Positions 14,481 through 32,821 of a stretch of DNA of 64,000 bases are shown piece after piece. The position numbers and the translations under genes were made by a program. Source of the stretch: Candidatus Borrarchaeum weybense. Its GTDB lineage: Archaea > Asgardarchaeota > Sifarchaeia > Borrarchaeales > Borrarchaeaceae. The DNA lies in assembly GCA_019057385.1 (NCBI GenBank), contig JAHQJS010000004.1, forward strand, positions 320,001 through 384,000. The letters run 5' to 3'. The notes below the pieces were generated by a model. The model had not been told where the DNA came from. It saw only the letters and a program-made list of their open reading frames with translations, and did not search any database. Each line of letters begins with the position of its first letter. Within the stretch, counting starts at the first letter, position 1.

Positions 14481-14534
14481 TTTTTATTCCTCCTTCTCTT
14501 AGAATAAAGTTATAACTAATTAATAAAAGGAGAT

Positions 14535-14671: not shown

Positions 14672-14730
14672 GCATTAATTTATAAAGATATAAAATCCAA
14701 TTCTGTTCCAAGATATATACCGAACTAAAA

Positions 14731-14837
14731 TGGTGCGGCTGCCGGGAATCTCAAAATGGGTTATATACCTCAATTTTTTTGAACCCGGGTCATCGACGTG
14801 GCAGGCCGAAGTCTTAGCCAGGCTGGACTACAGCCGC
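14731..14837 (-). tRNA. tRNA-Gly(GCC) with T-loop intron
   Basis: GCGGCTG/CAGCCGC-ACCA; TCGGC-CTGCCAC-GTCGA; insert in T-loop. Confidence 0.88.
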
Positions 14838-15040
14838 ACAATGTAAACTATATTCTAAGGAATTGAAACGTTTAACTTTTATTCAATTCAATTCCTATAT
14901 AGAGAAAAAGCTGTTTAAAAATGTTATGACAAACTGAAAATGCGATTTCTACTCATAACACATTTCTAGCAAACGGTATTTTGAAAAAAGAACTACTTAA
15001 TTTAGCAAAATCATTCGAGATCAACGCATAATGATTCAAT

Positions 15041-15745
15041 CTAAAAATCATTATTAAAGTCTATTTTTGATGATATTTCGTAAGAATAGAGTACTCTTGA
15101 TATAGCAACATGAGCATCCAGTGATATTTTACTTATAGAAACTACTTCATCTGCAATCTCCAATGTTTTCTTTTCAAATTGACCATGTGGGAATCCACCT
15201 ACAATAATTGCCAGTGGTTTGATTTCAACTGCCTTTTTCATTAAATTGTTTAATTCAACCTCTTTGCCTGTTTTAGAGAATAAAATTGTATGTTTTGGCT
15301 TTATTTCATCATGAAGTTCTTTTAAAGTCATTTCATGAATAGTAAGTAAACTGGATCCTTTTGGAGGTACTTTCCCCATCATGAACAATTGACTCATTAA
15401 CCCCGAAAAGCGGACATAATTACGTGGGAGTCTTACATTGGGATCTACCTGGATAACAAGATCATTCAAAGTATGTATGAAGATTTTTATGTATCCTGAT
15501 TTACATAGCGGTGTGCCTAAAATTGATAGAAGTGAGATATGTACTATATCAGGGCGTCCTCTTTTCTCATATGCTTTTGGATTATCTATAAAAAACGAGT
15601 GAATAGATTTGTCAAAAACAATGGTTTCTGGGGATTTTTTCTGTTTTTTAGCATATCTTCGAAATTTTGCCAGATTTCTAAATTCGACGGGGATTGATTC
15701 CAGTGCGGATTCTGCTAAAATGAAGTATAAAATAGAGTCTTTCAT
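15041..15745 (-). CDS. nep1: Nep1/Emg1 rRNA pseudouridine N1-methyltransferase
   Basis: KRGRPDIVH, RLPRNYVRFSGLM, VGGFPHG. Confidence 0.93.
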   Translation of the reverse strand: MKDSILYFILAESALESIPVEFRNLAKFRRYAKKQKKSPETIVFDKSIHSFFIDNPKAYEKRGRPDIVHISLLSILGTPLCKSGYIKIFIHTLNDLVIQVDPNVRLPRNYVRFSGLMSQLFMMGKVPPKGSSLLTIHEMTLKELHDEIKPKHTILFSKTGKEVELNNLMKKAVEIKPLAIIVGGFPHGQFEKKTLEIADEVVSISKISLDAHVAISRVLYSYEISSKIDFNNDF

Positions 15746-15879
15746 TTTTTCTCCTTTAATAATGAAATATCTTTTAAATACAACTGGTTTTCGGTCTTCA
15801 TTGAAGCTTGACTACAAAAGGGAATAATTTTATAGATTTTCGTTCATATCACTTTTATCAAAGTTTTTGTGAGATCGTC

Positions 15880-16215
15880 ATGAAACGTCGTAGAAGAATA
15901 AATACTCGCTCCATAAAGAAAATTGCACGTGAAAGGATCGAACATCTTCTTGAATTAGCTAAGGCAGTATTTAGTACAGATAGTAATCTGGCACAAAGAT
16001 ATGTACAACTTGCCTTACGGATTGGTATGCGACATAAGGTCCGAATTCCACGATCTCAACGTTGGCAAATTTGTAAACATTGTCATTCATTATTAATTCC
16101 GGGTGTGACCTGTCACTCAAGATTACGTAACAAACGTGAACCACACATAGTTATAACATGCTATAAATGCAAAAATTACAGTAGATATCCCTATAAAGTG
16201 AAAAAACAACGTTAG
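15880..16215 (+). CDS. rnp4: Ribonuclease P protein Rpp21
   Basis: IARERIEHL, RYV, CKHC..PG..CYKC..RYP; start reassigned to ATG 15880. Confidence 0.92.
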   Translation: MKRRRRINTRSIKKIARERIEHLLELAKAVFSTDSNLAQRYVQLALRIGMRHKVRIPRSQRWQICKHCHSLLIPGVTCHSRLRNKREPHIVITCYKCKNYSRYPYKVKKQR

Positions 16216-16275
16216 TACTGCTTTCTCATGTAAAATTGAATCATTATTATGGGAGAAATATTTTAAACACTAGTA

Positions 16276-16998
16276 ATGGTATTAGGCTTCAATTACTCGA
16301 ATTATCCAGAGGGCTTTGATTTGAAGATTACAATTCTTATTCCTGCTTATAATGAAGCACATTCGATCAAAGAAGTAATTCGAAGAATAAAAGCCCTCAA
16401 TCTTGGTTATAAGTACGAAATTCTTGTTGTAGATGATGGATCAACTGATGAAACATCAGAAATCGTCAAAAAAATGAATAATGTAAGACTAATTACGCAT
16501 AAAATGAATAAAGGTAAAGGTACAGCATTAAAAACTGGTTTTAACGCCGCAAATGGGGATATAGTTGTTATCCAAGATGCAGATATGGAGTATTTACCGA
16601 AAGATATCCCGAGTTTAATTAAACCTTTGATTGAAGGTAAAGCCGATGTAGTTTATGGATCAAGATTCAAAGGAAAACTTTATGGTATGACTTTTTCTCA
16701 TGCTTTAGGCAACTTAGGACTGACTTTGGCAACATCTTTACTTTTTGGTACAAGGGTAACAGATATGATGACTGGATATAAGGTTTTTCGAAAATATGTA
16801 CTTGAAAACATCAATATACAGGCAGAACGATTTGAGGTTGAACCTGACATTACAGGAAGAATATTATTGAATAGATATCGATTAGTCGAATTGCCTATCG
16901 AATATCATAAACGGAAAAAAGGAAAAGCAAAAATCAGTAAACTTGATGGTGTACGGTCCCTGATTTGGTTGTTAAAAATTCGCTTTAGGCGTCATTGA
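16276..16998 (+). CDS. Family 2 glycosyltransferase (dolichol-phosphate mannosyltransferase-like)
   Basis: IPAYNE, VDDGSTD, NKGKG, QDADMEY, VYGSRF. Confidence 0.9.
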   Translation: MVLGFNYSNYPEGFDLKITILIPAYNEAHSIKEVIRRIKALNLGYKYEILVVDDGSTDETSEIVKKMNNVRLITHKMNKGKGTALKTGFNAANGDIVVIQDADMEYLPKDIPSLIKPLIEGKADVVYGSRFKGKLYGMTFSHALGNLGLTLATSLLFGTRVTDMMTGYKVFRKYVLENINIQAERFEVEPDITGRILLNRYRLVELPIEYHKRKKGKAKISKLDGVRSLIWLLKIRFRRH

Positions 16999-17018
16999 AT
17001 TAGATTGCATTGAGTTAA

Positions 17019-17945
17019 TCAAAGAAGCAATGTTAGAATTGCCTTTTGTGCATGTAATCTGTTTTCCGCTTGATCCCACACAACTGAATTAGGTCCATCA
17101 ATCACCTCGTCAGTAATTTCTTGACCGCGATGTGCTGGAAGGCAATGCATTACAATGACATTTATTAGTGCATTGTTTAGTAATTCTTGATTTACTTGAA
17201 ATGGTGGAAAAACTTCCATTCTTTCCTCTGCTTCAGCCTCTTGCCCCATTGAAATAAAGGTATCAGTATAGACAACATCTGCATCAAGAACTGCGTCTTG
17301 AGGATCGTGAACTATCTGAACTTCAGAATCAAATATTCTTGCGTTGTCTTTTGCTAAATCAATAACATCTTCTAATGGTTCATAGTTTTCCGGACAGCCC
17401 ACTGATATATTGATGCCTAGTTTTGAGCATCCTATAAGTAAAGAATTACAGACATTATTTCCATCTCCAACATAGCTTATCTTCAAATTCTCAAAATTTT
17501 TCCTCTTCTCCTTAATAGTCAAAAGGTCAGCCAATATTTGACAGGGATGGAATAAATCACTTAGACCGTTTATAACTGGGACTTGTGAGAAATCTGCAAG
17601 ATCTAATAAGTCTTCATGTGAGTAAACACGTGCCATAATTCCATCTACATATCGGGCTAGTGTACGCGCAGTATCAGGGATAGTTTCTCCTCTACCAAGT
17701 TGCAAATCTTTTGCGCCTAAAAATAGGGCATAACCTCCCAATTGGCGCATAGCCACTTCAAAGGATACACGAGTTCTAGTACTTGATTTTTCAAAAATCA
17801 TAGCTAATGTTTTTCCATTTAGTATCTCAGACGACTCTCCACGAAGATACATCTTCTTAAGATCGCTCGCAATATCCAACATATAATGAATTTCTTCAAA
17901 TGAAAAATCTTGCAATGTAAAGAAATCCTGTCCTCGAATATCCAT
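17019..17945 (-). CDS. argF: Ornithine carbamoyltransferase
   Basis: SSTRTRVSFE, HPCQ, SMG, HCLP, QAENRLH. Confidence 0.96.
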   Translation of the reverse strand: MDIRGQDFFTLQDFSFEEIHYMLDIASDLKKMYLRGESSEILNGKTLAMIFEKSSTRTRVSFEVAMRQLGGYALFLGAKDLQLGRGETIPDTARTLARYVDGIMARVYSHEDLLDLADFSQVPVINGLSDLFHPCQILADLLTIKEKRKNFENLKISYVGDGNNVCNSLLIGCSKLGINISVGCPENYEPLEDVIDLAKDNARIFDSEVQIVHDPQDAVLDADVVYTDTFISMGQEAEAEERMEVFPPFQVNQELLNNALINVIVMHCLPAHRGQEITDEVIDGPNSVVWDQAENRLHAQKAILTLLL

Positions 17946-18010
17946 AAGGTCCTCCTCCTTTTTCTAAATAGGAGTTAACTAACTTAATTTAAGATCTAAT
18001 AATAATTATA

Positions 18011-18940
18011 TTATATAGCACTTTCTGGTACGATCTTTTCAGCAAACTTTTTAGGATAAAATGCATCTAGATCTTTGTATTCTTGACCGATTCCAATAAA
18101 TACAATGGGCTTTTTCGTAACATGAGCAATAGAAATAGCAGCCCCTCCTTTTGCATCAGCATCAACTTTAGTCAGTATTGAAGCATCAATACCTACAGCC
18201 TCATTGAATTCGCGAGCTTGTTCGACGGCATCATTACCAGCAAGACTGTCTCCTACAAAGACTGTAATCACATTCGCGTCTTCGATTCGTTTAAGAACAC
18301 GAACGATCTTTTCCATCTCTCCCATAAGGTTCTTATTGGTTTGCATTCTCCCAGCAGTATCAATTAGAACAATATCTATGTTTTTTGCAATTGCATGACT
18401 AACAGCATCAAAGGCAACAGCAGCAGAATCCGAGCCATATTTGTGTTTGATTACTTTAACTCCAAGTTTGTTTGCATGAATTTCTATTTGCTCTATGCTT
18501 CCTGCACGGAAAGTATCCGATGCTGCAAGGACTACAGAAAAACCCTTTTTTTGGAATAGACTAGTAAGCTTGGCTAAAGTTGTTGTTTTTCCTGTACCAT
18601 TAACTCCTAAAAATACAATCGCTAAAGGTTGCCCCTGTTCTTTGCCTTTTTTTGCTAACTCAAAAAGATCTATACCCTCTACTTTAAGGATTTCTAGAAT
18701 TGTATTTCTTAAGGCACTATAGACGAATTTCTTTGTGCTCTTAAGACGACCTACCTTCTCACCAGTCAACTGTTGTTTCATAAGTTCTCCAATTTCAGCT
18801 GCCACGGAAAATGCAACGTCGTTTTGTATTAATATTATTTTCAAAGATTCAAGAACATCCTCTAACTGGTCTTCACTCAATGTCTTCGATGATATTTTTT
18901 CTGTAAAACCCTGAAGACCACTTCTTAGTTTTTCAAACAT
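18011..18940 (-). CDS. ftsY: SRP receptor FtsY (first 38 codons apparently supplied by the island)
   Basis: GVNGTGKTTT, DTFRAG, DTAGR, TKVDADAKGG, GIGQ; start MFEKL at 18940. Confidence 0.95.
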   Translation of the reverse strand: MFEKLRSGLQGFTEKISSKTLSEDQLEDVLESLKIILIQNDVAFSVAAEIGELMKQQLTGEKVGRLKSTKKFVYSALRNTILEILKVEGIDLFELAKKGKEQGQPLAIVFLGVNGTGKTTTLAKLTSLFQKKGFSVVLAASDTFRAGSIEQIEIHANKLGVKVIKHKYGSDSAAVAFDAVSHAIAKNIDIVLIDTAGRMQTNKNLMGEMEKIVRVLKRIEDANVITVFVGDSLAGNDAVEQAREFNEAVGIDASILTKVDADAKGGAAISIAHVTKKPIVFIGIGQEYKDLDAFYPKKFAEKIVPESAI

Positions 18941-19263
18941 AGATGTTTTCTCTCCGAGCATATGAAGCATTAAGGATTGATTGATTGCTTGACGCAAGTT
19001 TGTGACATATCAATCAGGTTTTTTAATATACGTTTTGATTCCGAATTTGAAAACTCAATTTTATCGAATAATTATTCAAAGAACATTTTAACACGCATTC
19101 ATCTCTTGTTGAATTATAAAAGATGTTATATCTGATGAGGATGTCTTACCTATTTTATAGTATTCTTGAGCAATAGTATGAATATATGTCGAATAGCTTT
19201 CTTTTATAAAAAATGTGAAAAATGCCCTTTTTCTCTTATATCAGATAATAATTAAGAATAACG

Positions 19264-19304
19264 AAAGGAGTGAGATGATCAGCACAAAACCGATCATCTC
19301 CTTT
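19264..19304 (-). terminator. Hairpin closing guide RNA 1 (terminator or 3' processing signal)
   Basis: AAAGGAG-TGAGATGATC ... GATCATCTC-CTTT inverted repeat just downstream of spacer 1 on the minus strand. Confidence 0.55.
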
Positions 19305-19310
19305 TGGATG

Positions 19311-19470
19311 ATTTCAGCTGCGACAGAAAGCGCGACATCGTTTTCGTGGGTATGACATTTTTCGTCCCTTGCGAGTCATCCGTCCCCTTCGATGAGGCGT
19401 CGGACCTCTCAGGTTCAGTCTCATGCACAAGAACGTGTCCCTCATGTTTTATGAGGAACATACCGCCTTG
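19311..19470 (-). ncRNA. Putative guide RNA 1: scaffold (19346-19436 core) plus 35-nt ftsY-matching spacer (19311-19345)
   Basis: Scaffold repeated at 20452-20546; spacer 28/35 identical to ftsY 18792-18826; own TATA box (TTTATATA, 19498-19505). Confidence 0.8.
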
Positions 19471-19541
19471 CAACTCATATATTCGCTTACAAAGACCTAT
19501 ATAAACACCACTCTTCATAACAAGGACTCCCAGTTCCATAC

Positions 19542-20354
19542 TTACATGTCCTCTTTCAGGTCATCAAGATAAAGGTTGACCATTAATAAGAGATGGTTTT
19601 TCAAAGAAGAAAAACCATAGGTTAGTGCTTCGTTGATTTTATCAAGGTCATTGCATTTTCGAATAAAGGTATAAAGTGCAAAAGGAGAGTATTGGCGCAG
19701 TTCTATCTCTCTTTTTAACGCGTTGAAATCTATCTCTTCTGATTCTGCTACATGATAACGTGAAAATGCAGTCCATCTAAATTTTCGAGAAATCATTGCA
19801 GACCATCTATCATAATTTTGTAGTAAAGAAAGCAGAGGAAAGTCTTTTTCATCTATAGTATAATTATGATGGTTCTTTGCGAGCTGATAGACTTCGTCAT
19901 TAATTATATCAACATCAGTATAAATTTTGCTTGGATGTCGATCAGTGCTTACAAAATCATGCAGGAGCATTGCTATAATTAACTTTTCCTGCACATCTGA
20001 GAGTTTTGGAAGTTTCTTACGTATGTTAATCTTTCTCGAAATATAGAGGGGTTTTTTCTTGAATTCACTCACAGAAGTCCAAAAGATTTGTCCCACCCCC
20101 TCACATGTATAACTCCCGACACTATCAATAGCTAGTGCTTTTTCAAGTTTATGTTCTGGAACGATGAACTCAACATTACCAAACCATGCCCTAAAGGTCA
20201 TTGGAGCACGTCTTTGTCCTACCGTTAATTTTCCGAATACCCTGGGACGACCATTTATAGTCATCGCACCAACATCGGTAACTCCAAAATGTCTACGCCT
20301 TGAAACGATAGGAGTTTTTGTATAACCAATCAATTTAAAGTATTTTTGTGACAT
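19542..20354 (-). CDS. Cas5-like RAMP fused to HD nuclease domain
   Basis: N-terminal beta-rich RAMP ending in G-loop VGSYTCEGVGQI; LLHDF..NHH..YDRWSA and C-terminal SLKNH. Confidence 0.7.
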   Translation of the reverse strand: MSQKYFKLIGYTKTPIVSRRRHFGVTDVGAMTINGRPRVFGKLTVGQRRAPMTFRAWFGNVEFIVPEHKLEKALAIDSVGSYTCEGVGQIFWTSVSEFKKKPLYISRKINIRKKLPKLSDVQEKLIIAMLLHDFVSTDRHPSKIYTDVDIINDEVYQLAKNHHNYTIDEKDFPLLSLLQNYDRWSAMISRKFRWTAFSRYHVAESEEIDFNALKREIELRQYSPFALYTFIRKCNDLDKINEALTYGFSSLKNHLLLMVNLYLDDLKEDM

Positions 20355-20404
20355 TTATTCCCCTCATTTGAGGTTTTACCTCCTCTTTAAACAAAAGAGA
20401 GGAG

Positions 20405-20570
20405 ATATAAACCTTGCCAAAGTAAACACGTTTGCAACTGTTGTTTGTAAAGTGGGTATGACATTTATCGTCCCTTGCGAGTCATCCATCCCCAATAATC
20501 GAGGCGTCGGACCTCTAAGTTGGTTCAGTCTCATGCACAAGAACGTATCACTCACATCAGTAGGTGATAG
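20405..20570 (-). ncRNA. Putative guide RNA 2: scaffold (20452-20546 core) plus spacer matching the cas7 promoter
   Basis: Second scaffold copy; 20405-20451 aligns to 21454-21501 (42/47 identities, one gap); followed by a CTCCTCT/AGAGGAG hairpin. Confidence 0.8.
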
Positions 20571-20608
20571 ACCGTTATGAGATGAGAAAAAAAGTTGAGA
20601 TAAATATG

Positions 20609-21418
20609 TCACACAACCACCTTCTCACCCTGTCCACTCATAAGATTCAAAGAAGTTCTCCAACCCTCGATATTACTTAGAGTTAGTGGAGTTTCAGTGG
20701 TTTCTTCGATAATTTTATAATTTCCTTCACTATCCTCTCCGATTCTTCGAATAGTTTCAACCTTCTGAAGAGCAATATTAAGGATCTTGACGCAACCATA
20801 ACCACTTGCCCGTCCTGCTCCAAGAATTTCTACGTAGAGCATTGCCTCTATAAGAAACTTGATTTCACCATCAGTTAAGTTAGTCACATCAATGTGAAAG
20901 GAAAAAAATCCGCTGAAATAACTCTCACGAAAGTCTTGGATAGGAATACCATCATAGGCAAGAGCTATCCTATTTTCGCTAGCGATGTGGACATTTTGAA
21001 CAGGCACTTCAGTTGTGTATTCCTTATGTTTAATCGAGACAATAGGATCTGCAGCGACAACAATAGAGGACTTTTCGCGGAAGGTGCCAAAGATTGTTCG
21101 GAGAATACAGGGAGGATCACATGTACCAAGCGCATGAAACCCTTTCGGAAGAACACTTTTACCATCTTTAAGCGCTGTTTTCTCAGAACTGTGACAGACT
21201 TCAATGTTGCAGTCTTGAGCAAGCTCCATACAGGCATGTCTTAGCATTCCTCGGATACCTTTAATGTAATAAAACTTAGTATTGAATGTCTTTGAACTGT
21301 TTGTGTAAGGAAGTTTCCCTAACAAGAGCATGCTAGAATTTTTCTGAATCGAGGCATTGATAGGCTTTGCTATGGGTGTAAAGGCATGAATAACTATCTG
21401 TTTTTTGATTTTTCTCAT
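20609..21418 (-). CDS. Cas7-group RAMP (Csm3/Csf2-like backbone subunit)
   Basis: TPI near N-terminus, KGIRGMLRH, Cys cluster ..C..PCILRTIFG, ENRI, C-terminal G-loop LGAGRASGYG. Confidence 0.82.
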   Translation of the reverse strand: MRKIKKQIVIHAFTPIAKPINASIQKNSSMLLLGKLPYTNSSKTFNTKFYYIKGIRGMLRHACMELAQDCNIEVCHSSEKTALKDGKSVLPKGFHALGTCDPPCILRTIFGTFREKSSIVVAADPIVSIKHKEYTTEVPVQNVHIASENRIALAYDGIPIQDFRESYFSGFFSFHIDVTNLTDGEIKFLIEAMLYVEILGAGRASGYGCVKILNIALQKVETIRRIGEDSEGNYKIIEETTETPLTLSNIEGWRTSLNLMSGQGEKVVV

Positions 21419-21452
21419 GTTTCCAACCTCAGATATATTTAGTACAAGTACC

Positions 21453-21501
21453 TATATAAACCTTGCTCAAAATAAACACTTTTCCAACTTTTGTTAGTAA
21501 A
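21453..21501 (-). promoter_or_regulatory. cas7 promoter (TATA/BRE region); predicted target of guide 2
   Basis: TTTATATA at 21453-21460, ~35 bp upstream of the cas7 ATG; same ACCTATATAAAC context as the guide-1 promoter. Confidence 0.75.
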
Positions 21502-21764
21502 ATGGGGATTAAATTGACTTCCATTTTAGAAATAAAGCATTTTTAACAGTTTTTAGATGAAAAACCATCGAATATTTAGTGCCTGCTTTATAAATAACAA
21601 AGTCAAGCAACAATTTACATCATCATCTCTTTAAAAGAATAAACATATGATTTAACAAAATTAAGCGATTACGAGAATTCACAAGGAATACATTAATGGT
21701 GTCAACTAAACTAAAAAATGTTCTTAAAAGAATAATTGTACCATTGATGGTTGCTAATAAATCA

Positions 21765-24700
21765 TTAGGGCAAAAGATCCTTAACTATAACTGGAGGACC
21801 TTTTTTCTGTGGTGTATAAATTCCCTCCATGTGTTGAAACCTTTCAAACATTAGAAGAAGAGCTTCTTTATCTGGAGCATAAATAAAGGGGACGAATCGC
21901 TTCTTTTCTAGCAAAAAATCCTTGAGTTGTAGTGCGCACTGCCTTATAGCATCCTTTACTGTCATATATTCATCCAGATAGTATATCTCTTGATTAAGTA
22001 TATCACCAACCAGTCTCTCAACTTTGTAGTGCCCGTTCCACGTTAAATGATAGAATCGTTCACGCTCTAATGTTTTACGTATCTTAAAATCGGCTTTTGT
22101 AAATTTACCATATATACATGCTAAGATGAAGGTGAACCTGAATAGGGGAAGAAACATCTCTCGGAAGTCAACGACGGTGCCAAGAAAGGATCGCCGTGTT
22201 TTCTTAAAATGCAATATCAGTTCATCGGGCACCCATGAGAACCCTACTTCAGCGAGTGCTTTTCGACAGTAAAAATTAAGATGGCGATAGACGGCATTGA
22301 GTGCCGCACTAAAGGGAGTTCGCGCCTTTGCTTCACCCAGAAGCACCACTGTGGCAATATAGCGATCGAGGGTACGACTAATGATCTCAAAGTAACTGCC
22401 TTGCAGCAAATGCTTGGGAACCTCCCAGGCAACGCTTTCCACTACCCCTTCAAGACCGCGAAGGTTGTCAATATTGCCCCGCCAATAGAGAAAAGTGTAC
22501 GCCACGCGATCCAGCAGTTGGGATAAGAATTCCTGTGCCTCCGCAGAAGATAATATCCCCTCTTTTTCAAACCAGAGAATTGCATTGGCGAGCCCCATAT
22601 TTTTACCCATCACCAGCAGCCTCGCTAATAACGTGCCTCGTTCCGTCCCTCTGAGTTGCTGGGCGGTGTGTTTCAGTTCATCAGCTAATTGTTGTTTCTC
22701 TGGTGTCAGTGTATGCTGTGCAAAGAATCTGCCTTCGGGCGAATTAATATCAATGAGTTTCTTGCCATAGTTCTTACGAACTAGTTGCGAAACTTCTCCA
22801 CCCTCGATGATGATGTGACAGATAGCACCGATTAAATATCGATGTGTTGTTTTCCCGTCCTTTAGTGCATGAGCAAATCGTTTTTTCTTAATATCAAGCC
22901 GTTCACCGCACTTGACACGAATGGTTCGTTTTGGTCGTCGAATGTAAACCTTTGTTTTTTTAACCCGCGGGACATAATTTCCGGGCTTGCCTAAAAGCAA
23001 ATCCAATCCTTTTAGCATCAAACCTCGGTTGCCTGGTTTCACCACCAAGTCACCTTTCATGGTCAAATAATAGCGGGAATTGCATTCGGGACAGACTGTG
23101 TATTCATTATAGCAGGATGGCAATTCCACCGTACCGCCGGAGTAGCAGAAGTAGCACGGAGTATCATCGAGTGTTTCTTGTATGGCACTAATTGTGCGCT
23201 TTTTTAACTCCCGCGCTTTCTGATGGTATTCGCAGGCACCCATCTTTGGTGCGGCATAGGATTTCCTTTCTTGCCTTCCAATTTTTGTGTTATACTTTTG
23301 ATTCAACACACAGATATGTGCACGTTTCGATCTGCGACGATCCTTCATAGAATTTATCCGAAAGAAGCCACATGAACCACAGGTGAGCCGCAGATGTTCA
23401 GGAATACTCATATTCGCGTCTGCCACATAGATTTTAGGGCGACCTCGTAACTGCCCTCGAGAGATAAATTGGATTTTTCCTTGGATTCCTAACTTCTTTG
23501 CATGTTTCACTACCGTAGTATGGTGAACTGGTCGATTATACTGTTTACGAACCTCTGACGTAATTTGTGCGTAAGAGATGACCTTATATTGATTAATAAT
23601 GTTATAAATTGCTTCTTGAAGTCCCGGATATGGTATCGGTCTGTACTTTGGATACCTGCGTCTCCTTCTGCCTTTGTTCCCTCTTTCAACTTCAGGCTCT
23701 TTGTATTCAGGATTTAGTTTTGTGGTAAGTTTTTTGGCAACCCTTGCCGCCCTCGGGTCACTGCGCCCCAGATAGTCATAACTTGCTTCTGCGATCCACG
23801 ACGCCGTCTTTCTATGTGCTTCTGCATCACCCGGTCGTATGTTTACCCGAGTTGCAGCTTTTGTGACCGAAGAACCCTGACTGAGTAACCATACGAAAGA
23901 GGCATATTGCTGGGCGGTATATCGTGTGGTGTTGCTCACTTCATGTATGCTTCGACCGATTAGTGTAATTACGTGCCGGGAGAATTCCCGTTCTGAGGAG
24001 CAATGATGTGTGGCAAAAAACTTCTTGATCCTTAAGGCGGTTTTAATCGGCAGTAAAAATTGGCTGGCCCAGCGTCCTTTGGCTGTTGCACTAAACTTTC
24101 CACCATTTCTTTTGATAAAACCTTCCTTGATAAGTGTGTGAAGGATTCCCTCTCTTTTTTTCTTCGGTTCATCCTGCTTAGGTCGAGCTAACAGTTTCTC
24201 TCTTAGTTGTTGTGTAAAGTCTTTCAACTGGTCGTGGGTGAATGGTGTCAACAGTAAGCGAAGCTCTCCGTTTTTGACCCCGCGTGTAGTGGTGTTCTTC
24301 TTGACCCACATGAAGAATTTTCTCGTTACACGTTTCAAGTCGAATGGGAGAGAGCCTTCGTGCGTTTCGCGCAATAAGGACAGTAAATGAAGTTCGTTAT
24401 TGAGCCGACAAAGCTCCTCTTCCTGGTTCATGAGTGCGTTATTCATTAGTTCGGACCAATTCTGTAGCAATGCTTTGTGTTGATGCCAGAAGTAATGTCT
24501 TTCAAGTTTGTGAAGTAATTGATTCGTGGATGCCGAGCCTCTAGCTATCAGGGTGAGTACAATATCTGCCAAAGAAGAACGTGCCTGGCTTGTTATACGA
24601 TGTTCTTTGACTATCAATTGTCCCTCGACGATTTGTATCTCCTTTTGCTTCAAAATTTCTTGATCGTCCCCCACGAAGATCAGATCAGCATAGCCCACCC

Positions 24701-25775
24701 GATGATGGCGCGGTCGTGCCGCCCTGCCACTCAATTGTATCAACAGGTGAGGGTTGAACATCCCGGCATCGGCAATTATCACCCGTTTGATCGGAAAGTC
24801 CACCCCCTCTCCGTATTGAATCGTTGACAGAAAAACCTGAAATTCACCCTTCTTAAGCCGTCTCATAGCTTCTTGTTGTTCCTCTTTACTGAGCCCGGCG
24901 TGACTGTAGCCCACGGTGAGATCGAGTCCACAACTCTTAAGAAAGGACTGCAACTCTATAGCTCGTTGTTCAACCTGATTTCGTGTGTAGCAAAAGATGT
25001 GCACGATTTTAGTCCCCTGATCATCACCATACGAGCGTTGTTCAAAGGTCTTTTTGATCAAGCGAGCGAACAGAAAGCGTTTTTTTCGTTCAATCTGCTC
25101 TATGGTGCTGCCTGAAACCCCACAAGATGACACAATAAGCTTCGACTGCCGTTCGTTGGTATGGATAAGTTGAGCGTCAAGCCAACTTACCAGTTCCTCG
25201 GCATTCCCCAGAGTAGCCGAGAGATAGATGATATGCGGGCGAGGGCGTAACCAAGATCTTGCATTGACGATTGCAGTTTCTAGGCGAGCACCCCGCCCTT
25301 TGTTGCCCAGATTGTGCAGTTCATCGACCACAATCAATCCTATCTTGTCTAAAAACGGATACTCGAAATGCTTAACTAGCAGTCCATTGAAGGATTCGTA
25401 GGTGCTGATGAGGATATCCGCCGTTTCAAGCTCTTCAGGAGACGAACGGTCATCTCCGCTGACTTTGAGGATGGTACAGGCGTCGTGATACCACTCTTTG
25501 AACTTGTCATACATCTGATCGATCAGCCGTTTGGTCGGCTCAAGAATTACACAGCGCATCCCTTTTCCAAGCACGCGGGTAGACACTATTTGGGATATCA
25601 AGGTTTTTCCCGAAGCGGTAGGAGTGTACAACACCTTGTCCTGCCTTTGTTTACCAGAAAAACATGCCTCCCATTGAAAGTCGTAGAGGGCGTTAATGTC
25701 AGCCTGTTCCAACCGTTGACGTATGAATTCGTAGTTTAACCCTCTTTTCGTCATTGTAATGAACTGGCCTCTCAA
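21765..25775 (-). CDS. Ski2/Hel308-like SF2 helicase - HTH/Zn-finger linker - divergent Cas1 integrase fusion
   Basis: Helicase: PTASGKT, DELH, SAT, HAGL, QLSGRAAR. Cas1 (~21765-22950): LRGLEG, PFSAALNAVY, ILH, DFREMF. Start may be ATG 25754; TATA box at ~25810. Confidence 0.82.
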   Translation of the reverse strand: MRGQFITMTKRGLNYEFIRQRLEQADINALYDFQWEACFSGKQRQDKVLYTPTASGKTLISQIVSTRVLGKGMRCVILEPTKRLIDQMYDKFKEWYHDACTILKVSGDDRSSPEELETADILISTYESFNGLLVKHFEYPFLDKIGLIVVDELHNLGNKGRGARLETAIVNARSWLRPRPHIIYLSATLGNAEELVSWLDAQLIHTNERQSKLIVSSCGVSGSTIEQIERKKRFLFARLIKKTFEQRSYGDDQGTKIVHIFCYTRNQVEQRAIELQSFLKSCGLDLTVGYSHAGLSKEEQQEAMRRLKKGEFQVFLSTIQYGEGVDFPIKRVIIADAGMFNPHLLIQLSGRAARPRHHRVGYADLIFVGDDQEILKQKEIQIVEGQLIVKEHRITSQARSSLADIVLTLIARGSASTNQLLHKLERHYFWHQHKALLQNWSELMNNALMNQEEELCRLNNELHLLSLLRETHEGSLPFDLKRVTRKFFMWVKKNTTTRGVKNGELRLLLTPFTHDQLKDFTQQLREKLLARPKQDEPKKKREGILHTLIKEGFIKRNGGKFSATAKGRWASQFLLPIKTALRIKKFFATHHCSSEREFSRHVITLIGRSIHEVSNTTRYTAQQYASFVWLLSQGSSVTKAATRVNIRPGDAEAHRKTASWIAEASYDYLGRSDPRAARVAKKLTTKLNPEYKEPEVERGNKGRRRRRYPKYRPIPYPGLQEAIYNIINQYKVISYAQITSEVRKQYNRPVHHTTVVKHAKKLGIQGKIQFISRGQLRGRPKIYVADANMSIPEHLRLTCGSCGFFRINSMKDRRRSKRAHICVLNQKYNTKIGRQERKSYAAPKMGACEYHQKARELKKRTISAIQETLDDTPCYFCYSGGTVELPSCYNEYTVCPECNSRYYLTMKGDLVVKPGNRGLMLKGLDLLLGKPGNYVPRVKKTKVYIRRPKRTIRVKCGERLDIKKKRFAHALKDGKTTHRYLIGAICHIIIEGGEVSQLVRKNYGKKLIDINSPEGRFFAQHTLTPEKQQLADELKHTAQQLRGTERGTLLARLLVMGKNMGLANAILWFEKEGILSSAEAQEFLSQLLDRVAYTFLYWRGNIDNLRGLEGVVESVAWEVPKHLLQGSYFEIISRTLDRYIATVVLLGEAKARTPFSAALNAVYRHLNFYCRKALAEVGFSWVPDELILHFKKTRRSFLGTVVDFREMFLPLFRFTFILACIYGKFTKADFKIRKTLERERFYHLTWNGHYKVERLVGDILNQEIYYLDEYMTVKDAIRQCALQLKDFLLEKKRFVPFIYAPDKEALLLMFERFQHMEGIYTPQKKGPPVIVKDLLP

Positions 25776-26228
25776 TTCCTGCCTCTCATTTACAATGGTT
25801 GCAAATTTCTATATAAAGAGGGGAACTTTTGGATCGCTGGCTCGAAAAACTATGTCACTTGAACTCTTCACAAACCAAAGCGTTTTCCAAATCAAATGCT
25901 ATTAGACACAAATTAGAGATCGTTACTTTCATTAATTGAATCTACACGAACTCTCACTAAAAACAAAATTGTAGCATTTATGAAAGAATTTTCAAATGAT
26001 AGCATCATTTGATAACGGGAACGTAATCTAATTTCGGGACGGTAAAATTATCGCTAAAACTAGGAATATGAATCTTTGAAATCATATAGGAGAGGAACTT
26101 CAACTCACTAGAGAGGCATAAGGATATGTGAAATCATAATTAAACAAATATGTCCAGCAAAAAATTACTAAGCTTTATTAGTTGCCAAGCTAATATCTAG
26201 ACGATTAATATGGACGCGGTTCGTAAAA

Positions 26229-28469
26229 ATGCCAACAGATGACCATTTTAAAAGAGGAATTGAATTCTTCAATCGAAAACAATACAAGAAGGCCATTAAA
26301 GCATTCAAGAAGGCTTTAACGTCAGACCAAGAACACTATGTGATATGGTACAACATGGGATTAGCTTTCTCGAAACTAGATAAATTCACTAATGCCATTT
26401 ATTGTTATAAAAAAGCCGTGAAAATTAACCCTGAGTTTGCAGAAGCGTGGGGCAACATGGGTGCTGCGTATCATGAGTTAGATAAGCTTAACAAAGCCAT
26501 CGAGTGCTTCCAAAGGGCATTGGAAATCAACCCTGAGTTAATAGACACATTAAACAATATGGCGGCAGTTTACATAAAATTAAATGAGTATAATAAAACT
26601 GTCGAATGTTATCAAAAAGTTTTGGAAATTGCCCCTATGAATAAAATCGCTTTGCATAATTTAGCTTGGGCTTATGGAAACTTAAATAATTATGAAAAAG
26701 CAGTTGAATATTACCAAAAGGCAATAAAAAACGAACCTGAATATGTATTCGCATGGAATAACTTAGGAGCGGTTTATGGAAAACTCGGTGAGTATAAAAA
26801 AGCCATTGAATGTTATGAAAAGGTCCTTAAACTTGACCCCATAAATGTAAAGGCATGGAAAGGCATAGAAATTGCTCACAGAAAATTAAACGAATTTGCT
26901 GAGGCAATTGAGTGTTGCCAAAGAGTTATAGAACTCAATTCTAGCGATATAGACACATGGAATAATATGGGCGTTTCCTACGGAGAATTGGGCGAATATA
27001 ATAAAGCTATCGCATGTTTTGAAGAAATATTAAGAATTGAACCCAATAACGCAAAAGCGCTGAATAACGCAGGAATTGCCTACGAAGGATTAAATGAGTT
27101 TAAAAATGCGCTTAACTATTATAAGAAGGCTTTAGAAATTGATCCTAATTATGTAGATGCATGGTACAACATGGGCAACGCCTATAAAAAGTTAGACGAA
27201 CACATGAAAGCAATTGATTGCTACAAGAAAGTCGTGGCAATTGACTCAGAGCATACAAAAGCATGGAATAATTTGGGCAATACCTATGAAAAATTAGACC
27301 TACATATGCCTGCGATCGAATGCTATGAGAAAGCGTTGAAAATTAACCCTGAGTTTGTTAATGCTTGGTATAACATAGGTAATGTCTATAGAAACTTAGA
27401 CGAAGACATGAAGGCGATTGAATGTTATAAGAAAGCTGTGGAAATCGACTCGAAGCACTCAAAAGCATGGGGAAATATGGGTGCCATTTACACGCTTTTA
27501 GGTGAACACATGTCTGCAATCGAGTGCTATAAGAATGCTGTAGAAGCTAGTCCTGAATATGCTGGCGCGTGGTATAACATGGGTGTGACCTATGTAGAAG
27601 TAGGCAAATACATGTCTGCAATCGAATGCTATAAGAAAGCATTGGAAATAAATCCCGATTATATAGATGCATGGACGGGGATGGGGATCGCGTATGCAAC
27701 GTCTGATAATTATAATAATGCCTTTGAGTCCTTTCAAAACGCATTGGACATCAATTCTGAAGATGTTGGTACATGGTACAATTTAGGTGTGACTTACAAG
27801 AAATTAGGAGAGCGTAACAAGGCACATGATTGTTTTAAAAAGGCTCTGGAGATCAATCCTAAAGATATATTGTCAGCATACAATATGGGGGCGATTCAAG
27901 CAGAACTAAATGCAGAAAAGAAGATCTCAGAATTAAAGAACGACGTTGATTTTCTGAAAGGTCAAGAACTAGAGAATAAGATAAGTGAACTTGTCGAGAA
28001 ATCGTATAGTTTTCAATGCAAAAGAGAATATCGTGTCCAAAAATTGGAGGACGAAGAAGTCGAAAAATTCATTGAAAGAGGTTGTTATAGAGAAAGTACT
28101 AAATCAGTTGAATTAGATGTAATAGCTATAAAGGAAGAAGCCAAAACTGGGAAAAAACGCCCTGCCATGTTACTTTGTGAGTGTAAAGCCAAAAATACGC
28201 ATACAAATGAAAAACAAATCAAATGTTTCCTTTTAAAGACAGAAATTTGGAAGAGAAAATTTACTGAATTTTATGAATCCATGCCTGATTATCTCGCCCC
28301 AGAGTTCATATTATGGTATGTTAGCTTAAAAGGATTTACCAGAAACGCTGAAACGCTAATAAATCAAAATAAGATTGAGCCCTTTGATCTTGAAAAATTA
28401 AACAAGGAATTGAAGAAAGTAAATATTCTAACAATTCCTAAGAGATTTATTGCAGAACAAGAAAATTAG
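26229..28469 (+). CDS. TPR-repeat protein with C-terminal PD-(D/E)xK (Mrr/restriction endonuclease-like) domain
   Basis: ~16 TPRs (AWYNMG..Y..AIECY.KAL.I.P); ELDVIA..CECK..VSLKGFT. Confidence 0.8.
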   Translation: MPTDDHFKRGIEFFNRKQYKKAIKAFKKALTSDQEHYVIWYNMGLAFSKLDKFTNAIYCYKKAVKINPEFAEAWGNMGAAYHELDKLNKAIECFQRALEINPELIDTLNNMAAVYIKLNEYNKTVECYQKVLEIAPMNKIALHNLAWAYGNLNNYEKAVEYYQKAIKNEPEYVFAWNNLGAVYGKLGEYKKAIECYEKVLKLDPINVKAWKGIEIAHRKLNEFAEAIECCQRVIELNSSDIDTWNNMGVSYGELGEYNKAIACFEEILRIEPNNAKALNNAGIAYEGLNEFKNALNYYKKALEIDPNYVDAWYNMGNAYKKLDEHMKAIDCYKKVVAIDSEHTKAWNNLGNTYEKLDLHMPAIECYEKALKINPEFVNAWYNIGNVYRNLDEDMKAIECYKKAVEIDSKHSKAWGNMGAIYTLLGEHMSAIECYKNAVEASPEYAGAWYNMGVTYVEVGKYMSAIECYKKALEINPDYIDAWTGMGIAYATSDNYNNAFESFQNALDINSEDVGTWYNLGVTYKKLGERNKAHDCFKKALEINPKDILSAYNMGAIQAELNAEKKISELKNDVDFLKGQELENKISELVEKSYSFQCKREYRVQKLEDEEVEKFIERGCYRESTKSVELDVIAIKEEAKTGKKRPAMLLCECKAKNTHTNEKQIKCFLLKTEIWKRKFTEFYESMPDYLAPEFILWYVSLKGFTRNAETLINQNKIEPFDLEKLNKELKKVNILTIPKRFIAEQEN

Positions 28470-28640
28470 GCTTAAAAGATCCTTCTAAACTTTCGACATG
28501 ACGTAATTGAACTAATAAAAATAAATAGCATAAAATGTGATAGATATGGAAAAAGTAGAAGCGTTTTCATGGTATTTTGTTAAAAATAAATGGCCTGATT
28601 TAATTAACCGTTTCCATATTTTTCCCATAGGACTTTTAGG

Positions 28641-29207
28641 TTGGTTATCAGAATAAAAACTACATATTATCCATCTCTTAATGTTCAACAAATTAACTTT
28701 GTCCAAACAATCCTTATAAGATGGTGGAAAGAGGAAATAAGTGCAAAAGGAAAAAGAGACTTTTTCTGGAGGAAATGGATACTTGATCCTAAGATGACTA
28801 CCGTCATTTTGGAGGATTTTTCGTTTCCTCGTGATTTTGGTATATTTTGTACTGAAACAGCCCTGCGAAAAACACGCGCTGAAACTGTAGAAATTCATTT
28901 TAGACCATTTTTCAGGAGGTTTCATAGTTTTCAAGAAGTTAAAGCTGCAGATACAAAAGAATTAAGAAAAGTCCTATACCCCCTAGGTCGTGTCTCCCAG
29001 AATGTACGAGACCTTAAACAACGGGCTACAATAATAATAAACGAATTTAATTCGGAAGTCCCATGTACTAAAGAATACATAAGACGTCTAATGAAAACCT
29101 ATACACGAAAAATCTTACTGGAACACAGTTTCGAACATGGAGATGCAATAAACAGTACTTTGGTGCCTTTGCCACAATTCCTCCATCAGCTAATTCTAAG
29201 AGATTAA
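28641..29207 (+). pseudogene. Truncated HhH-GPD DNA glycosylase (MutY/MIG-like)
   Basis: KRDFFWR, ETALRKTRAETV, PLG, EVPCTKE; similarity ends before the HhH motif and FeS cluster. Confidence 0.6.
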
Positions 29208-29281
29208 GAGGATACAACATTTAAACCTTTGTGTGAGACCTTTTTCGTCTACCGCAAGTCAATGACCTCATTATAAAATAG

Positions 29282-29407
29282 TTATACTAGAAAAAGAAGA
29301 ATTAATTGTAGTTCCCAGAGAACATCATCAATTTGATCTTCGCTTAAAGTCTTAGTGGATACCTTGTCAGCGAATCCTGTGAGACTCTTTTTTAACTTTT
29401 CAAACAT
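29282..29407 (-). pseudogene. Stranded original 5' end of ftsY (41 codons)
   Basis: MFEKLKKSLTGFADKVSTKTLSEDQIDDVLWELQLILLFLV*; 23/38 aa identical to the FtsY N-terminus; directly downstream of pfdA. Confidence 0.9.
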
Positions 29408-29469
29408 CTTAATTTCTCTCTATGAAGGTCACTTAAACAGTAATTGTTCAGAAAAAAGTAATATTGATG

Positions 29470-29895
29470 CTATTTTTGTTGCATCTTATTGTAAGTTTCT
29501 TGTACAGTAGCCCGAAGTTCTTCTATTCTCTGGAGAGTGGTTCCCAACTGGTTTTGGAGTGTTGTGGAAATTCCTCGTAGTTCTTGTAATCGTTCAGCAA
29601 GTTTTTCTTGAGCGTTCTCTATACTCGTTTCAATAACTACATCACTACCTATCCCTAGAATAACCTTTTGTACGTTTGCAAGTGTTGCAAAAACAAATGA
29701 ATTCGATCCAATAGGTAAAAGGACCTCTTGACCTTCTTCTGCTTTAGTGATTCCATCAAGTGTGACACCTGTAATTGTAATCTGATTAATTTGAGCTTCA
29801 ACAGCTTCGACATTAGTTCTTAATACATCTGCATTAGCTTGTTGATGATTGAGTTCGTGAACCATCTGTTCAATCTTTTTTTGTTCTTCAGCCAT
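29470..29895 (-). CDS. pfdA: Prefoldin subunit alpha
   Basis: Coiled coils flanking EVLLPIGSNSFV..VILGIGSDVVIE. Confidence 0.92.
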   Translation of the reverse strand: MAEEQKKIEQMVHELNHQQANADVLRTNVEAVEAQINQITITGVTLDGITKAEEGQEVLLPIGSNSFVFATLANVQKVILGIGSDVVIETSIENAQEKLAERLQELRGISTTLQNQLGTTLQRIEELRATVQETYNKMQQK

Positions 29896-29921
29896 TCTTT
29901 ATGCCTCCCTTGGCAAATTAT

Positions 29922-30158
29922 TTATATTCGTGATAATTCAGAAGTAAGGCTCTTCAGTACAGGATCGGTAATATCTTCATCTTGAATTTGTGAAATTTCA
30001 GTTATTTTTATGAATTTTCTTGGAACTTTGTGTTTACTCCCTATAAGGGATAAAACGTTTTCAATTGCATGGGTTTCTTTTAGGGCTTTGATCTCTTTGG
30101 CGAATGGGATCTTTTTACTCTTTGCTCTATAGACGCCCTTAATCCGAAATACTGACAA
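29922..30158 (-). CDS. rpl18a: 50S ribosomal protein L18Ae (LX/eL20)
   Basis: FRIKG..FAKEIKA..AIE..S.IGSKHKVPRKFIKI; probable TTG start. Confidence 0.88.
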   Translation of the reverse strand: MSVFRIKGVYRAKSKKIPFAKEIKALKETHAIENVLSLIGSKHKVPRKFIKITEISQIQDEDITDPVLKSLTSELSRI

Positions 30159-30404
30159 TAAAAACACCTCTATTTTCAGTGAAACCTTTTGTGCACATCT
30201 TAACATATTATCTTTTAACCTTTTACATTTGGGTTGAGAATTTTTGCTTTGTAAAAAAACTCTTGCTGTGAAAATTGGTTTTTAAATTGCACAATGAAAA
30301 GCTTAATAATTTTTATCCTAGCAAGGTCATTCATCTTGCAAAGACTTCGTTCTGAGTGATATTTATCTGGCGAGAGTCCTTTCTGAGAGTAAAATGGATT
30401 AACA

Positions 30405-31085
30405 GTGTACCTGGTGAACTGTGTGGTTATTGTTCAGAATAACTTTAATGGAATCGCCTCAGTCGGCATAATCTCACTGGCTACTGATAGTTATGTATTG
30501 GTTCCAAGAAACCTTCCAAAAAGAGTAGTCAATAAGCTACATGAGGTATTTGCTGCGCCAATTATCAAAACTTCAATTTATCAATCGCATCTAATTGGAA
30601 TATTAGCCGCTGGTAATAAATTTGGTCTATTAACTCATTTTCTTTCTGATGATGATGAGATTGAATATCTTAAGAAGGAAATTGGTATCCCTGTTGAAAG
30701 AATGAAAAGTAAACTAACTGTCGGAAATTGCATTCTTGCTAATGACAAAGGCGCAATTGCTGCGGATGAATTTGGTAAAGAAGACATTAAGCAAATCACT
30801 GATATTCTCAATGTAGAAGTTTTGCAAGGAAAGATCGTCAATTCATCTTTAATCGGATCACTTGGAGCAGCAAGTAATGAAGGCGCTATGGTGCACCCAT
30901 TAGCTACCGAAAAGGAATTAGAATGGATTAGCGAAGGCTTGAAAGTACATTCTGATATTGGGACCGTTAACAGAGGTGTTCCATATGTCTCAACAGGAAT
31001 CTTAGTTAATTCACAGGGGTGCGTTACAGGCGAAGAGACTACAGGTCCTGAATTAGTAAGAATCTCACAAACATTCGCACTTTAA
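30405..31085 (+). CDS. eif6: Translation initiation factor 6 (inverted relative to neighbours)
   Basis: GNCILANDKGA, GAMVHP, GTVNRGVPYV, TTGPELVRI; start may be GTG ~30423. Confidence 0.93.
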   Translation: MYLVNCVVIVQNNFNGIASVGIISLATDSYVLVPRNLPKRVVNKLHEVFAAPIIKTSIYQSHLIGILAAGNKFGLLTHFLSDDDEIEYLKKEIGIPVERMKSKLTVGNCILANDKGAIAADEFGKEDIKQITDILNVEVLQGKIVNSSLIGSLGAASNEGAMVHPLATEKELEWISEGLKVHSDIGTVNRGVPYVSTGILVNSQGCVTGEETTGPELVRISQTFAL

Positions 31086-31167
31086 ACTCTTATTTATTAT
31101 TGAGTATATAGTAATTACATTAATTTTTGAAAAAACAAAAAGAGAAATATCTATTGAAATAAAATGT

Positions 31168-31455
31168 TCATTTTGCTAAGTAAACTTCACATATCCCTTC
31201 GGTGTCCTTCACTGCCCTAACTCTTATTTTTCTCGGAGGTTTTTCGATACCTCGCTTCCAAAGTTCTTCATTGAGTTCTGGATCAATTCGAATGTCAATA
31301 GGATTTACTTTCATATGACGTTCTATGTAGTGTTTCAGAATCTTTATCGCACGAACTGTGCGTTTATGCCGTGGGGCGTGCTTTACGTCACGAAATGGAA
31401 TAGTATATAACTCTTCTTTTTCAATTTCTTCATCTAATATTTCTTCATCTGACAT
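31168..31455 (-). CDS. rpl31e: 50S ribosomal protein L31e
   Basis: YTIP, LNEELWKRGIEKPPRKIRVR. Confidence 0.95.
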   Translation of the reverse strand: MSDEEILDEEIEKEELYTIPFRDVKHAPRHKRTVRAIKILKHYIERHMKVNPIDIRIDPELNEELWKRGIEKPPRKIRVRAVKDTEGICEVYLAK

Positions 31456-31476
31456 TTCGTTTACGCATCCTTTCTA

Positions 31477-31632
31477 CTATTTCTTTAAGCGTGTACGTCG
31501 CCAATGCCTACTTTTAGGATGTGTACGCACTCTTCTTCGAGTTCTAACAACTATCCATGCAGGAACGCTTCTTGATTGCTTCAGTGCTTTTCCTAGTCGC
31601 AATTTTTTTCCTAAAGGTTTATATCGTGCCAA
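31477..31632 (-). CDS. rpl39e: 50S ribosomal protein L39e (not in ORF track)
   Basis: TTG start, [39 protein letters not shown]. Confidence 0.92.
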
Positions 31633-31645
31633 TGACAAGAATCTC

Positions 31646-31990
31646 CTATTTTCGTGTGATTTTAATATCTCTTTGTTTATCAGTCAATCTTCGTAAAATG
31701 GTTTTTAATTGGTCATCAGTTAATACATTGCCAAGTCGTCCAGCTTGTGCAAGTTGAATTAATTGAAGTTCAACCGCTTCAGCCAATTCGGGTTTTACAA
31801 TTTTTATTCGATTCAATCGTTCTCTTGCTTCAGGAGTCAATATCTGTCGGAGTATTGCTTGTTTCTGGGCTTCTAGTTCCTGTTGCATTTGTGCTTGTCG
31901 TTCTTGTTCTCCTTGTTGCTGTTGTAACTCAAGCATACGTCTTTTCTTTAATTCTTCAAGTTCTTCATCCGACAAGGTTTTTCCCTCCAA
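31646..31990 (-). CDS. PDCD5-family DNA-binding protein
   Basis: [28 protein letters not shown]. Confidence 0.93.
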
Positions 31991-32005
31991 GTTAAAAAAT
32001 CATTC

Positions 32006-32437
32006 TTACTTTTTTAATTGCTTTAAAATCTTGTTAGCAGCACGATCCATAAAAGAACGACCTTTAGCCGATAATGTTCGGCCAGAAGTATCATTTGGCT
32101 TCTCAATAAAACCTAACGCCTCTAATTGTTGTAAACCTAATCTAATTATCTTCCCAGCGCCTTTTCTAAAATGCTCTCTTCTATTGCCTTTGCGTAGTCT
32201 TCCTCCATACTTTATTCGAAGACGATTGACTCCAATTGGGCCATTAATATATACTTTACGTAGCAGGCTAGCTAGCCTGACATACCACCAATTAGGATTG
32301 GTCGGTGCCTTCTCCCGAAAGACGCCAGTTTTAACAAAGGACGCCCATGCTGGAGGTTTAAGCTCATCTATGTTCTTAAGTTCACTCGCAACTTCTTTAT
32401 TTAGTATAGCCGCTGGCACTTCATAAATGGTAACCAT
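32006..32437 (-). CDS. rps19e: 30S ribosomal protein S19e
   Basis: PAWASFVKTG, WWYVRLASLLRKVY, GPIGVNRLR..YGG. Confidence 0.95.
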   Translation of the reverse strand: MVTIYEVPAAILNKEVASELKNIDELKPPAWASFVKTGVFREKAPTNPNWWYVRLASLLRKVYINGPIGVNRLRIKYGGRLRKGNRREHFRKGAGKIIRLGLQQLEALGFIEKPNDTSGRTLSAKGRSFMDRAANKILKQLKK

Positions 32438-32821
32438 GAAACATCTCACCGATACGAGATTTTGTTCCTCTATTCTAGTATTTTCGATACTAGACTTAAT
32501 TCATTTATAAACATTTGCCAGTTGTCAATTTGAGCCTTATTTTTTCCCTTTATCTCTAAAGAGAAGAAAAAGGAAACCAATATCATCTTTCTTAAATTCC
32601 CAATTTAAATAAACTATCCTTTTCGTTATACAACAAGACCAAGACTGTAAATAAAATTGCGAGATTTTTGCGAAAAATAAGAATTGATTCTTTAATATCT
32701 GTATAGACTATTTATTTTGCTTAGAATCAAAAATTCAAAAAAAGGATAAAAAAAGTGAAAGATTTGATATTTTGAGATTTCTTATAAAGGTTGTTCTTTT
32801 ATGGGGTTGGAACACTATTAT

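Follow-up and report, generated by a model that had tools for sequence, protein, structure and literature searches.

This report concerns an inserted element that splits the ftsY gene in a 64,000-nt stretch of the genome of Candidatus Borrarchaeum weybense (contig JAHQJS010000004.1, positions 320,001 to 384,000), which we call the window and whose numbering is used throughout. The features of the element and of ftsY lie on the minus strand, except for two cargo genes. The native start of ftsY (29407-29294) is directly preceded by pfdA (29895-29470) and L18Ae, with pfdA placed as in related genomes. It halts after codon 38, adding only FLV and a stop codon (29293-29282), and it is identical to the metagenome-assembled genome of Candidatus Borrarchaeum yapensis (G004) at 107/114 nt and 36/38 aa. 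The working ftsY (18011-18940, Pfam SRP54 and SRP54_N) is native from codon 39 onward, and its codons 1-38 (18940-18827) are borne by the element. The two 38-codon stretches share 70 of 114 nt and 23 of 38 aa. An earlier note, made from the sequence alone, had described both the halted start behind pfdA and the functional gene with its different N-terminus, and both descriptions hold.

The earlier note had called for a comparison with genomes carrying an empty site. In two genomes of the same genus, G004 and G002, pfdA and ftsY are uninterrupted. Both window segments, 14001-18940 and 29294-33000, are about 91-92% identical to these genomes when aligned, with an overlap of exactly 114 nt between the two alignments. 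This places the insertion at 18827-29293, a length of 10,467 bp following codon 38. The element is absent from the orthologous site of both relatives and is thus a true insertion. Logan contigs, which come from another assembler and the probable source run, span both junctions with zero differences, and the left one is also spanned by a contig of 2,089 nt that has 93.7% similarity and comes from an unrelated study of soil. The assembly chimera that the earlier note had allowed for is therefore very unlikely. Its other reservation, a xenologous replacement of the whole gene, is excluded, since the ftsY body is as similar to G004 as the flanks are (728/813 nt; 89.5% to G004 and G002). The first 114 nt of the working gene match G004 at just 72/114 positions, and range from 62 to 66% nucleotide identity across relatives. 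Judged by these identities, the 5' end of the working gene and its leader are foreign to the genus and the orphan fragment and gene body are native, in agreement with the earlier proposal that the element brings its own ftsY 5' fragment. The leader (18941-19270) has no counterpart upstream of ftsY in relatives and presumably drives the restored gene as its promoter.

Neither inverted terminal repeats nor a target-site duplication nor a shared core could be found at 18827 and 29293, and no recombinase other than a Cas1 domain was detected in the element by Pfam, as the earlier note had said. Among the contigs, which drop rare forms, there was no joint that skips the element, as an empty site would, or that joins its ends, as a circle would. 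We rejected homing by double homologous repair as the original event, given that the host's own 5' fragment is still in place and that no homology exists at the right junction. At that junction, about 80 nt of the window (29199-29279) hold a short motif resembling the 3' portion of the RNA scaffold described below, followed by a conserved tail; this stretch recurs at 84-92% in an intergenic region of contig C3 (20289-20365) and in three relatives, and could represent an independent small RNA or host DNA that was captured. In a third relative (G001), two scaffold copies are inserted about 2.3 kb past pfdA (L025:1185-1488, on contig C73), equivalent to window position ~31650, and ftsY is uninterrupted in the portion covered.

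Read in the sense of ftsY, the element holds a HhH-GPD gene fragment, a TPR protein, a helicase-Cas1 fusion, a Csm3-like RAMP protein, RNA scaffold B, a 270-aa protein, RNA scaffold A with a 35-nt tail and a hairpin, the foreign leader and the foreign codons 1-38. The fusion protein (21765-25775, 1336 aa; Pfam DEAD, Helicase_C and Cas1) consists of a Hel308-like helicase, a linker with a winged helix-turn-helix and a zinc cluster, and a Cas1 domain. The last is recognized by Pfam at 1e-7. In searches of the PDB by sequence and by profile the Cas1 region had no match, and the fold search alone succeeded: an AlphaFold2 model of the C-terminal 407 aa matches the casposase 6opm and Cas1 structures at 1e-10 in Foldseek. 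The motifs LEG, LH and DFRE are invariant in all nine helicase-Cas1 family members compared, and it is from these motifs, without superposition, that the roles of the catalytic residues were assigned. Very few proteins belong to this family: 24 relatives turned up among 1.84 billion representatives, and six in a word-indexed protein search. This copy of the gene, one member of a multi-copy family, has 44-48% G+C, against 31-40% in the remaining element and flanks.

Two smaller proteins complete the module. One is a Cas7-like, Csm3-like RAMP of 269 aa (20609-21418; Pfam RAMPs 4e-6, PADLOC Csm3 3.3e-7, and a weak NCBIfam match to a type III RAMP). The other (19542-20354, 270 aa) appears from its fold and motifs to combine a Cas5-like RAMP and an HD nuclease domain in one chain. 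When models are compared, its residues 119-270 have their best matches in the HD domains of Csm1/Cas10 (Z 8.6 and 7.7), and its residues 1-107 align weakly (Z ~5) to the Cas5 subunits of types I-A, IV-A and I-D. The LLHDF, NHH and D motifs are invariant in nine paralogs. Pfam and NCBIfam scans matched no sequence family to the Cas5-like part, the model of the whole protein had no Foldseek match with E ≤ 0.001, and a feature search of the Atlas gave a single lead at 0.75.

The two small open reading frames at 19294-19539 and 20376-20612 were rejected as proteins, as both are copies of a scaffold of about 125 nt. Scaffold A (19346-19470) and scaffold B (20452-20575) are 87% identical in their core, and the genome holds about 24 copies. 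Across 26 aligned copies, each pair of a 5' hairpin, present in scaffold B as well, has undergone 2-10 double compensatory changes, and changes from G-U to A-U occur in a long-range helix. This pattern of covariation indicates an RNA that would be read from the gene strand. Rfam has no family for it, whether searched at the gathering threshold or more permissively. Downstream of each scaffold come 35-45 variable bases, and after these a hairpin of its own that differs between copies; for scaffold A this is a terminator-like hairpin (19272-19300) with a 12-bp stem in the predicted fold. A repeat search of 17500-30500 found the TPR repeats and the two scaffolds only, and no CRISPR array.

The variable tails resemble guides. 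The tail of scaffold B (20407-20451) is directed at the promoter region of the element's own Cas7 gene, at 21501-21456, a stretch that lies immediately before a TATA-like box. The tail and this stretch differ at positions 6, 12, 18, 22 and 30. Periodic mismatches of this kind are also found in seven other modules. In every module the tail of the internal scaffold matches upstream of the Cas7 TATA-like box, with mismatches at 6, 12, 18, 24, 30, 36 and 42, and when seven modules are pooled, 31 of 40 mismatches fall at multiples of six (P ~4e-17). The module of Ca. B. yapensis shows the same period. Every sixth guide base is flipped out by Cas7 backbones, so that the six-base period suggests that these tails co-evolved with their target as Cas7-bound guides. 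The second guide is probably self-regulatory, a feedback brake on the Cas7 promoter. A 16-nt match of this guide to pfdA was discarded as being at chance level, with about one such match estimated to occur in 13 kb.

The tail of scaffold A (19311-19345) matches ftsY from codon 39. Its protospacer-like target (18792-18826) starts at the first host base past the junction. This guide is identical at 29-30 of 35 positions to the ftsY of three relatives and at 28 of 35 to the occupied site, and the ftsY target is the sole site with at least 25/34 matches in the 4.18-Mb genome. Because its position is about 480 nt in from the edge of the element, and because the empty sites have no copy of it, the guide is more than a stretch of neighboring host sequence. 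Occupied targets carry substitutions that are seen in no relative, some of them nonsynonymous (positions 1, 9 and 16 in the ftsY target), which fits either an escape from continued targeting or a remodelling of the target during insertion. This guide-like RNA tail within the element is the likely reason for the choice of site, and the earlier note had passed over it.

The same arrangement is found elsewhere in this genome, which holds six modules of helicase-Cas1, Cas7-like and Cas5-HD proteins and several partial ones. Four insertions, including that in ftsY, have empty-site controls in G004, and so each of the four elements is polymorphic in presence. A 6.9-kb sister consisting of the three genes and the RNAs only, with no cargo, splits a PRC-barrel gene; its guide matches the empty site at 29/30, the lone mismatch being at position 6, and starts at the junction. 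The split gene receives a new start codon from the element, and its old 5' end is left stranded on the opposite side. A 10.6-kb sister lies upstream of a trpB-like gene with a guide (24/34) that starts at the junction. The third, a 5.25-kb remnant, has replaced the promoter and start codon of its target gene, and its guide matches the empty site at 36/38. The start of the target gene is thus replaced in two of the three sister insertions. For three of the four guides, the sole genome-wide match of at least 25/34 is found on the same strand, 176-519 nt downstream. The right end is not the same from one element to the next, nor is the position of the junction. No other recombinase is encoded in the element or its sisters by Pfam, and the sister junctions likewise have no terminal inverted repeats and no 14-15-bp target duplication.

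A 28-kb island (C4:395.6-424.0 kb) has a whole diverged copy of its target gene at its far end. Its helicase-Cas1 gene is split into overlapping open reading frames of 567 and 781 aa (L028:9430-13469; G000 C4:417430-421468), which is probably a frameshift; a database protein of 781 aa (P0008) matches the second half. No clean empty site was found for the modules at C4:747-754 kb and C4:904-910 kb. The module of Ca. B. yapensis has four guide units, of which one matches the 16S rRNA gene at 32/34 and another the 5' edge of the RNase P RNA gene at 29/34. Neither gene lies within the 19 kb examined around that module, and both are typical conserved homing sites. The 16S gene in our data (L075:2568-5233; G000 C5:332567-335232) spans 2,666 nt against a 1,478-nt model, the extra ~1.2 kb being an intron or an insertion; the site matched by the relative's 16S guide falls within ordinary 16S sequence, some 140 nt from the start of the gene. 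Two short repeat families on G000 C3 (L026:15118-15437, ~320 nt, and L026:6933-7300, ~370 nt) recur dozens of times in all four relatives; the orthologous site in G004 lacks them, and they look like miniature transposable elements.

The two cargo genes of the ftsY element lie on the plus strand. The TPR protein (26229-28469; Pfam TPR) has a weak Mrr-like C-terminus (Mrr_cat, E 0.007, below the cut-off), and the glycosylase-like HhH-GPD gene is a fragment (28641-29207; Pfam 4e-4, also below the cut-off). Neither has a syntenic counterpart in relatives, and the TPR gene is not common to the sister elements. In two elements a TPR protein is encoded divergently from helicase-Cas1 (26229-28469 and L027:15160-16122), with the weak nuclease-like end here and with leucine-rich repeats in the sister. 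It may be an accessory part of the system.

We propose that the locus is an integrative element which is guided by RNA, restores the gene it enters and has at its center an array-less module derived from type III systems, and we give this reading a probability of about 0.6. In this model the module comprises the Cas7-like protein, the Cas5-HD protein and the helicase-Cas1 fusion, and would be of the Asgard RAMP (ARAMP) type. Single guide RNAs would be made, each with a scaffold of ~125 nt, a guide of 35-45 nt and a terminator hairpin, and would be loaded. One guide would bind the module's own Cas7 promoter region, as the probable brake mentioned above. The other would recognize codons 39-50 of ftsY, where an R-loop would mark the site and direct insertion to its 5' edge. 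The DNA would then be joined by the Cas1 domain with the help of the helicase, a step for which this protein is favored because it is the sole candidate encoded in the minimal element. As the cut would kill an essential gene, the target-facing end of the element would bring a foreign promoter together with the element's version of codons 1-38, leaving ftsY functional and the native 5' piece orphaned. Site choice by guide RNA is the simplest account of the regularities we see, and the locus points to a hitherto undescribed kind of RNA-guided DNA insertion.

Several observations weigh against this proposal. Known Cas1 integrases leave inverted repeats and duplications, and neither is present at the ends here. 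The agreement of the present ftsY site with its guide is only 28/35, and many terminal guides have no recognizable target in this genome. In the 5.25-kb remnant the junction is near guide position 14 and not 1, and in the 28-kb island host identity resumes just after the target-like stretch, so that this junction is not at position 1 either. At the C4:904-kb locus (L030:7656-8159 against G004 C118:17337-17840) the relative keeps the terminal scaffold, the guide and a GIY-YIG-like open reading frame. Missing from it, with a clean joint, is the 6,114-bp cassette that comprises helicase-Cas1, Cas7, scaffold B and Cas5-HD. This difference could be either an insertion or a deletion, and a relative with scaffold and guide but without the three genes implies that RNA and cassette can separate.

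We also weighed other explanations. The guide could be a record of the insertion and not its cause, if integration took place by another, possibly host-encoded route and helicase-Cas1 then copied the first 35-40 nt of the flank, for use in super-insertion immunity, regulation or retention as with flank-derived TnpB guides. Cas1 is the acquisition integrase of CRISPR systems, the guides begin at the junction, and the occupied targets have diverged from the guide, all of which would suit such a record. However, the ftsY guide is separated from the flank by ~480 nt holding the terminator, the leader and foreign codons 1-38, and the foreign 5' end implies an element already specialized for ftsY before it arrived. 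In addition, the 16S and RNase P guides of the relative's module are hard to see as copies of a flank, as their genes lie outside the 19 kb around it. We consider this explanation unlikely. Equally improbable in our view is that the ARAMP genes are mere cargo for defense or regulation, on an island that entered by recombination of its ftsY-like DNA with the host gene and an illegitimate join at the far end, with no role for RNA in the choice of site. ARAMP has indeed been classed as a defense-like CRISPR derivative (PMC8730458, PMC12669027), and the variable junction positions, the hybrid look of the occupied targets and the whole diverged target-gene copy on the 28-kb island would all be expected. 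Yet the 6.9-kb sister is still precisely inserted with three genes and RNAs alone, the crossover would have had little homology to work with (61% across 114 nt, without a shared core), and in four elements it is the RNA scaffold that is followed by a stretch matching the host target.

An assembly artefact or a simple xenologous replacement of ftsY has only a very slim chance of being correct. It draws on the 7% contamination estimated for this metagenome assembly and on the G+C of the helicase-Cas1 gene (45% against ~37% for the contigs of the genome). It is opposed by the contigs of another assembler, in which both junctions are crossed without difference, by the contig of the second study at the left junction, and by the 89-92% identity of the gene body and both flanks to relatives.

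It is useful to compare the element with known systems. The defining description of ARAMP systems is reportedly that of Makarova et al. in CRISPR J in 2020. In the literature ARAMP is array-less and derived from type III, has a divergent Cas1, and has a mechanism that is called enigmatic and is expected to be unlike CRISPR (PMC8730458, PMC12669027). Our gene set fits ARAMP, as assigned by these published descriptions and not by its protein clusters: the host is an Asgard archaeon, the Cas7-like RAMP and the putative Cas5-like one are highly diverged and nearest to type III, Cas1 is divergent, there are nuclease domains and there is no array. Scaffolded guide RNAs, a self-target with a six-base signature, mobility with empty sites and repair of the target gene go beyond this, and none of them is described for ARAMP in the literature searched. 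The element differs from type III CRISPR-Cas in having only a Cas10-like HD domain, fused to a RAMP; the Cas10 Palm/cyclase and an array were not found.

In operation the system would be most like the homing of CRISPR-associated transposons (CAST; Tn7-like I-F3, I-B and V-K, and CasMu). They too combine a nuclease-poor CRISPR effector with a homing guide to a conserved chromosomal site, and the guide is an atypical, stand-alone one, much as the guide here matches the adjoining site. However, the element has no TnsA/B/C, TniQ or Mu transposase (Pfam, all open reading frames) and no transposon ends, its effector is type III-like, and it rebuilds the gene that it splits. Furthermore, CAST insert 50-80 bp beyond the far end of the target, whereas the element abuts the guide-proximal edge. 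Casposons share a Cas1 homologue as sole recombinase candidate, their casposase 6opm being the best structural match of our Cas1, and known casposons also favor the ends of conserved genes. They differ in that the element has no PolB among its open reading frames, no terminal inverted repeats and no 14-15-bp duplication, and in that its Cas1 forms a fusion with a helicase and occurs together with RAMPs and guide RNAs.

The carried substitute for a displaced gene end, which keeps the target functional, recalls integrase-driven, gene-restoring elements, whose attP bears a gene end, for example on integration into tRNA genes. These differ from our element, which has no tyrosine or serine recombinase and no identical core, and whose carried copy is only 61% identical to the displaced one. 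As for the RNAs, the OMEGA RNAs of TnpB and IscB and the Cas9 long tracrRNA likewise unite a large 5' scaffold and a 3' guide in one unit, and in the self-regulating natural single guides of the long tracrRNA type one guide represses the promoter of its own system. The partner here is instead a multi-subunit Cas7/Cas5 effector, and the guide is encoded inside the element and not read from the flank.

A more general conclusion, which we regard as tentative and as likelier wrong than right, is that ARAMP systems are programmable: Cas7 and Cas5-HD with a stand-alone scaffolded guide would mark a site and helicase-Cas1 would insert the element there, which would make a class of RNA-guided transposition independent of Tn7 and Mu and relying on the integrase of CRISPR adaptation. 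The same tentative conclusion includes that three proteins and a single guide of ~160 nt would be needed, and that a split essential gene would routinely be rebuilt.

Reviews up to 2025 have treated ARAMP and HRAMP as array-less CRISPR derivatives whose mechanism is unknown. The locus described here, together with its sisters and their empty sites, gives ARAMP guide RNAs, a self-regulatory target and a probable role, which is homing to conserved genes. If the Cas1 step is true, casposons, CRISPR adaptation and RNA-guided transposition would be linked in one system, found in the archaeal group closest to eukaryotes, and the module would be a compact candidate for programmable DNA insertion. For the element itself, the repair of ftsY means that an essential gene can be occupied harmlessly, while imprecise loss becomes lethal.

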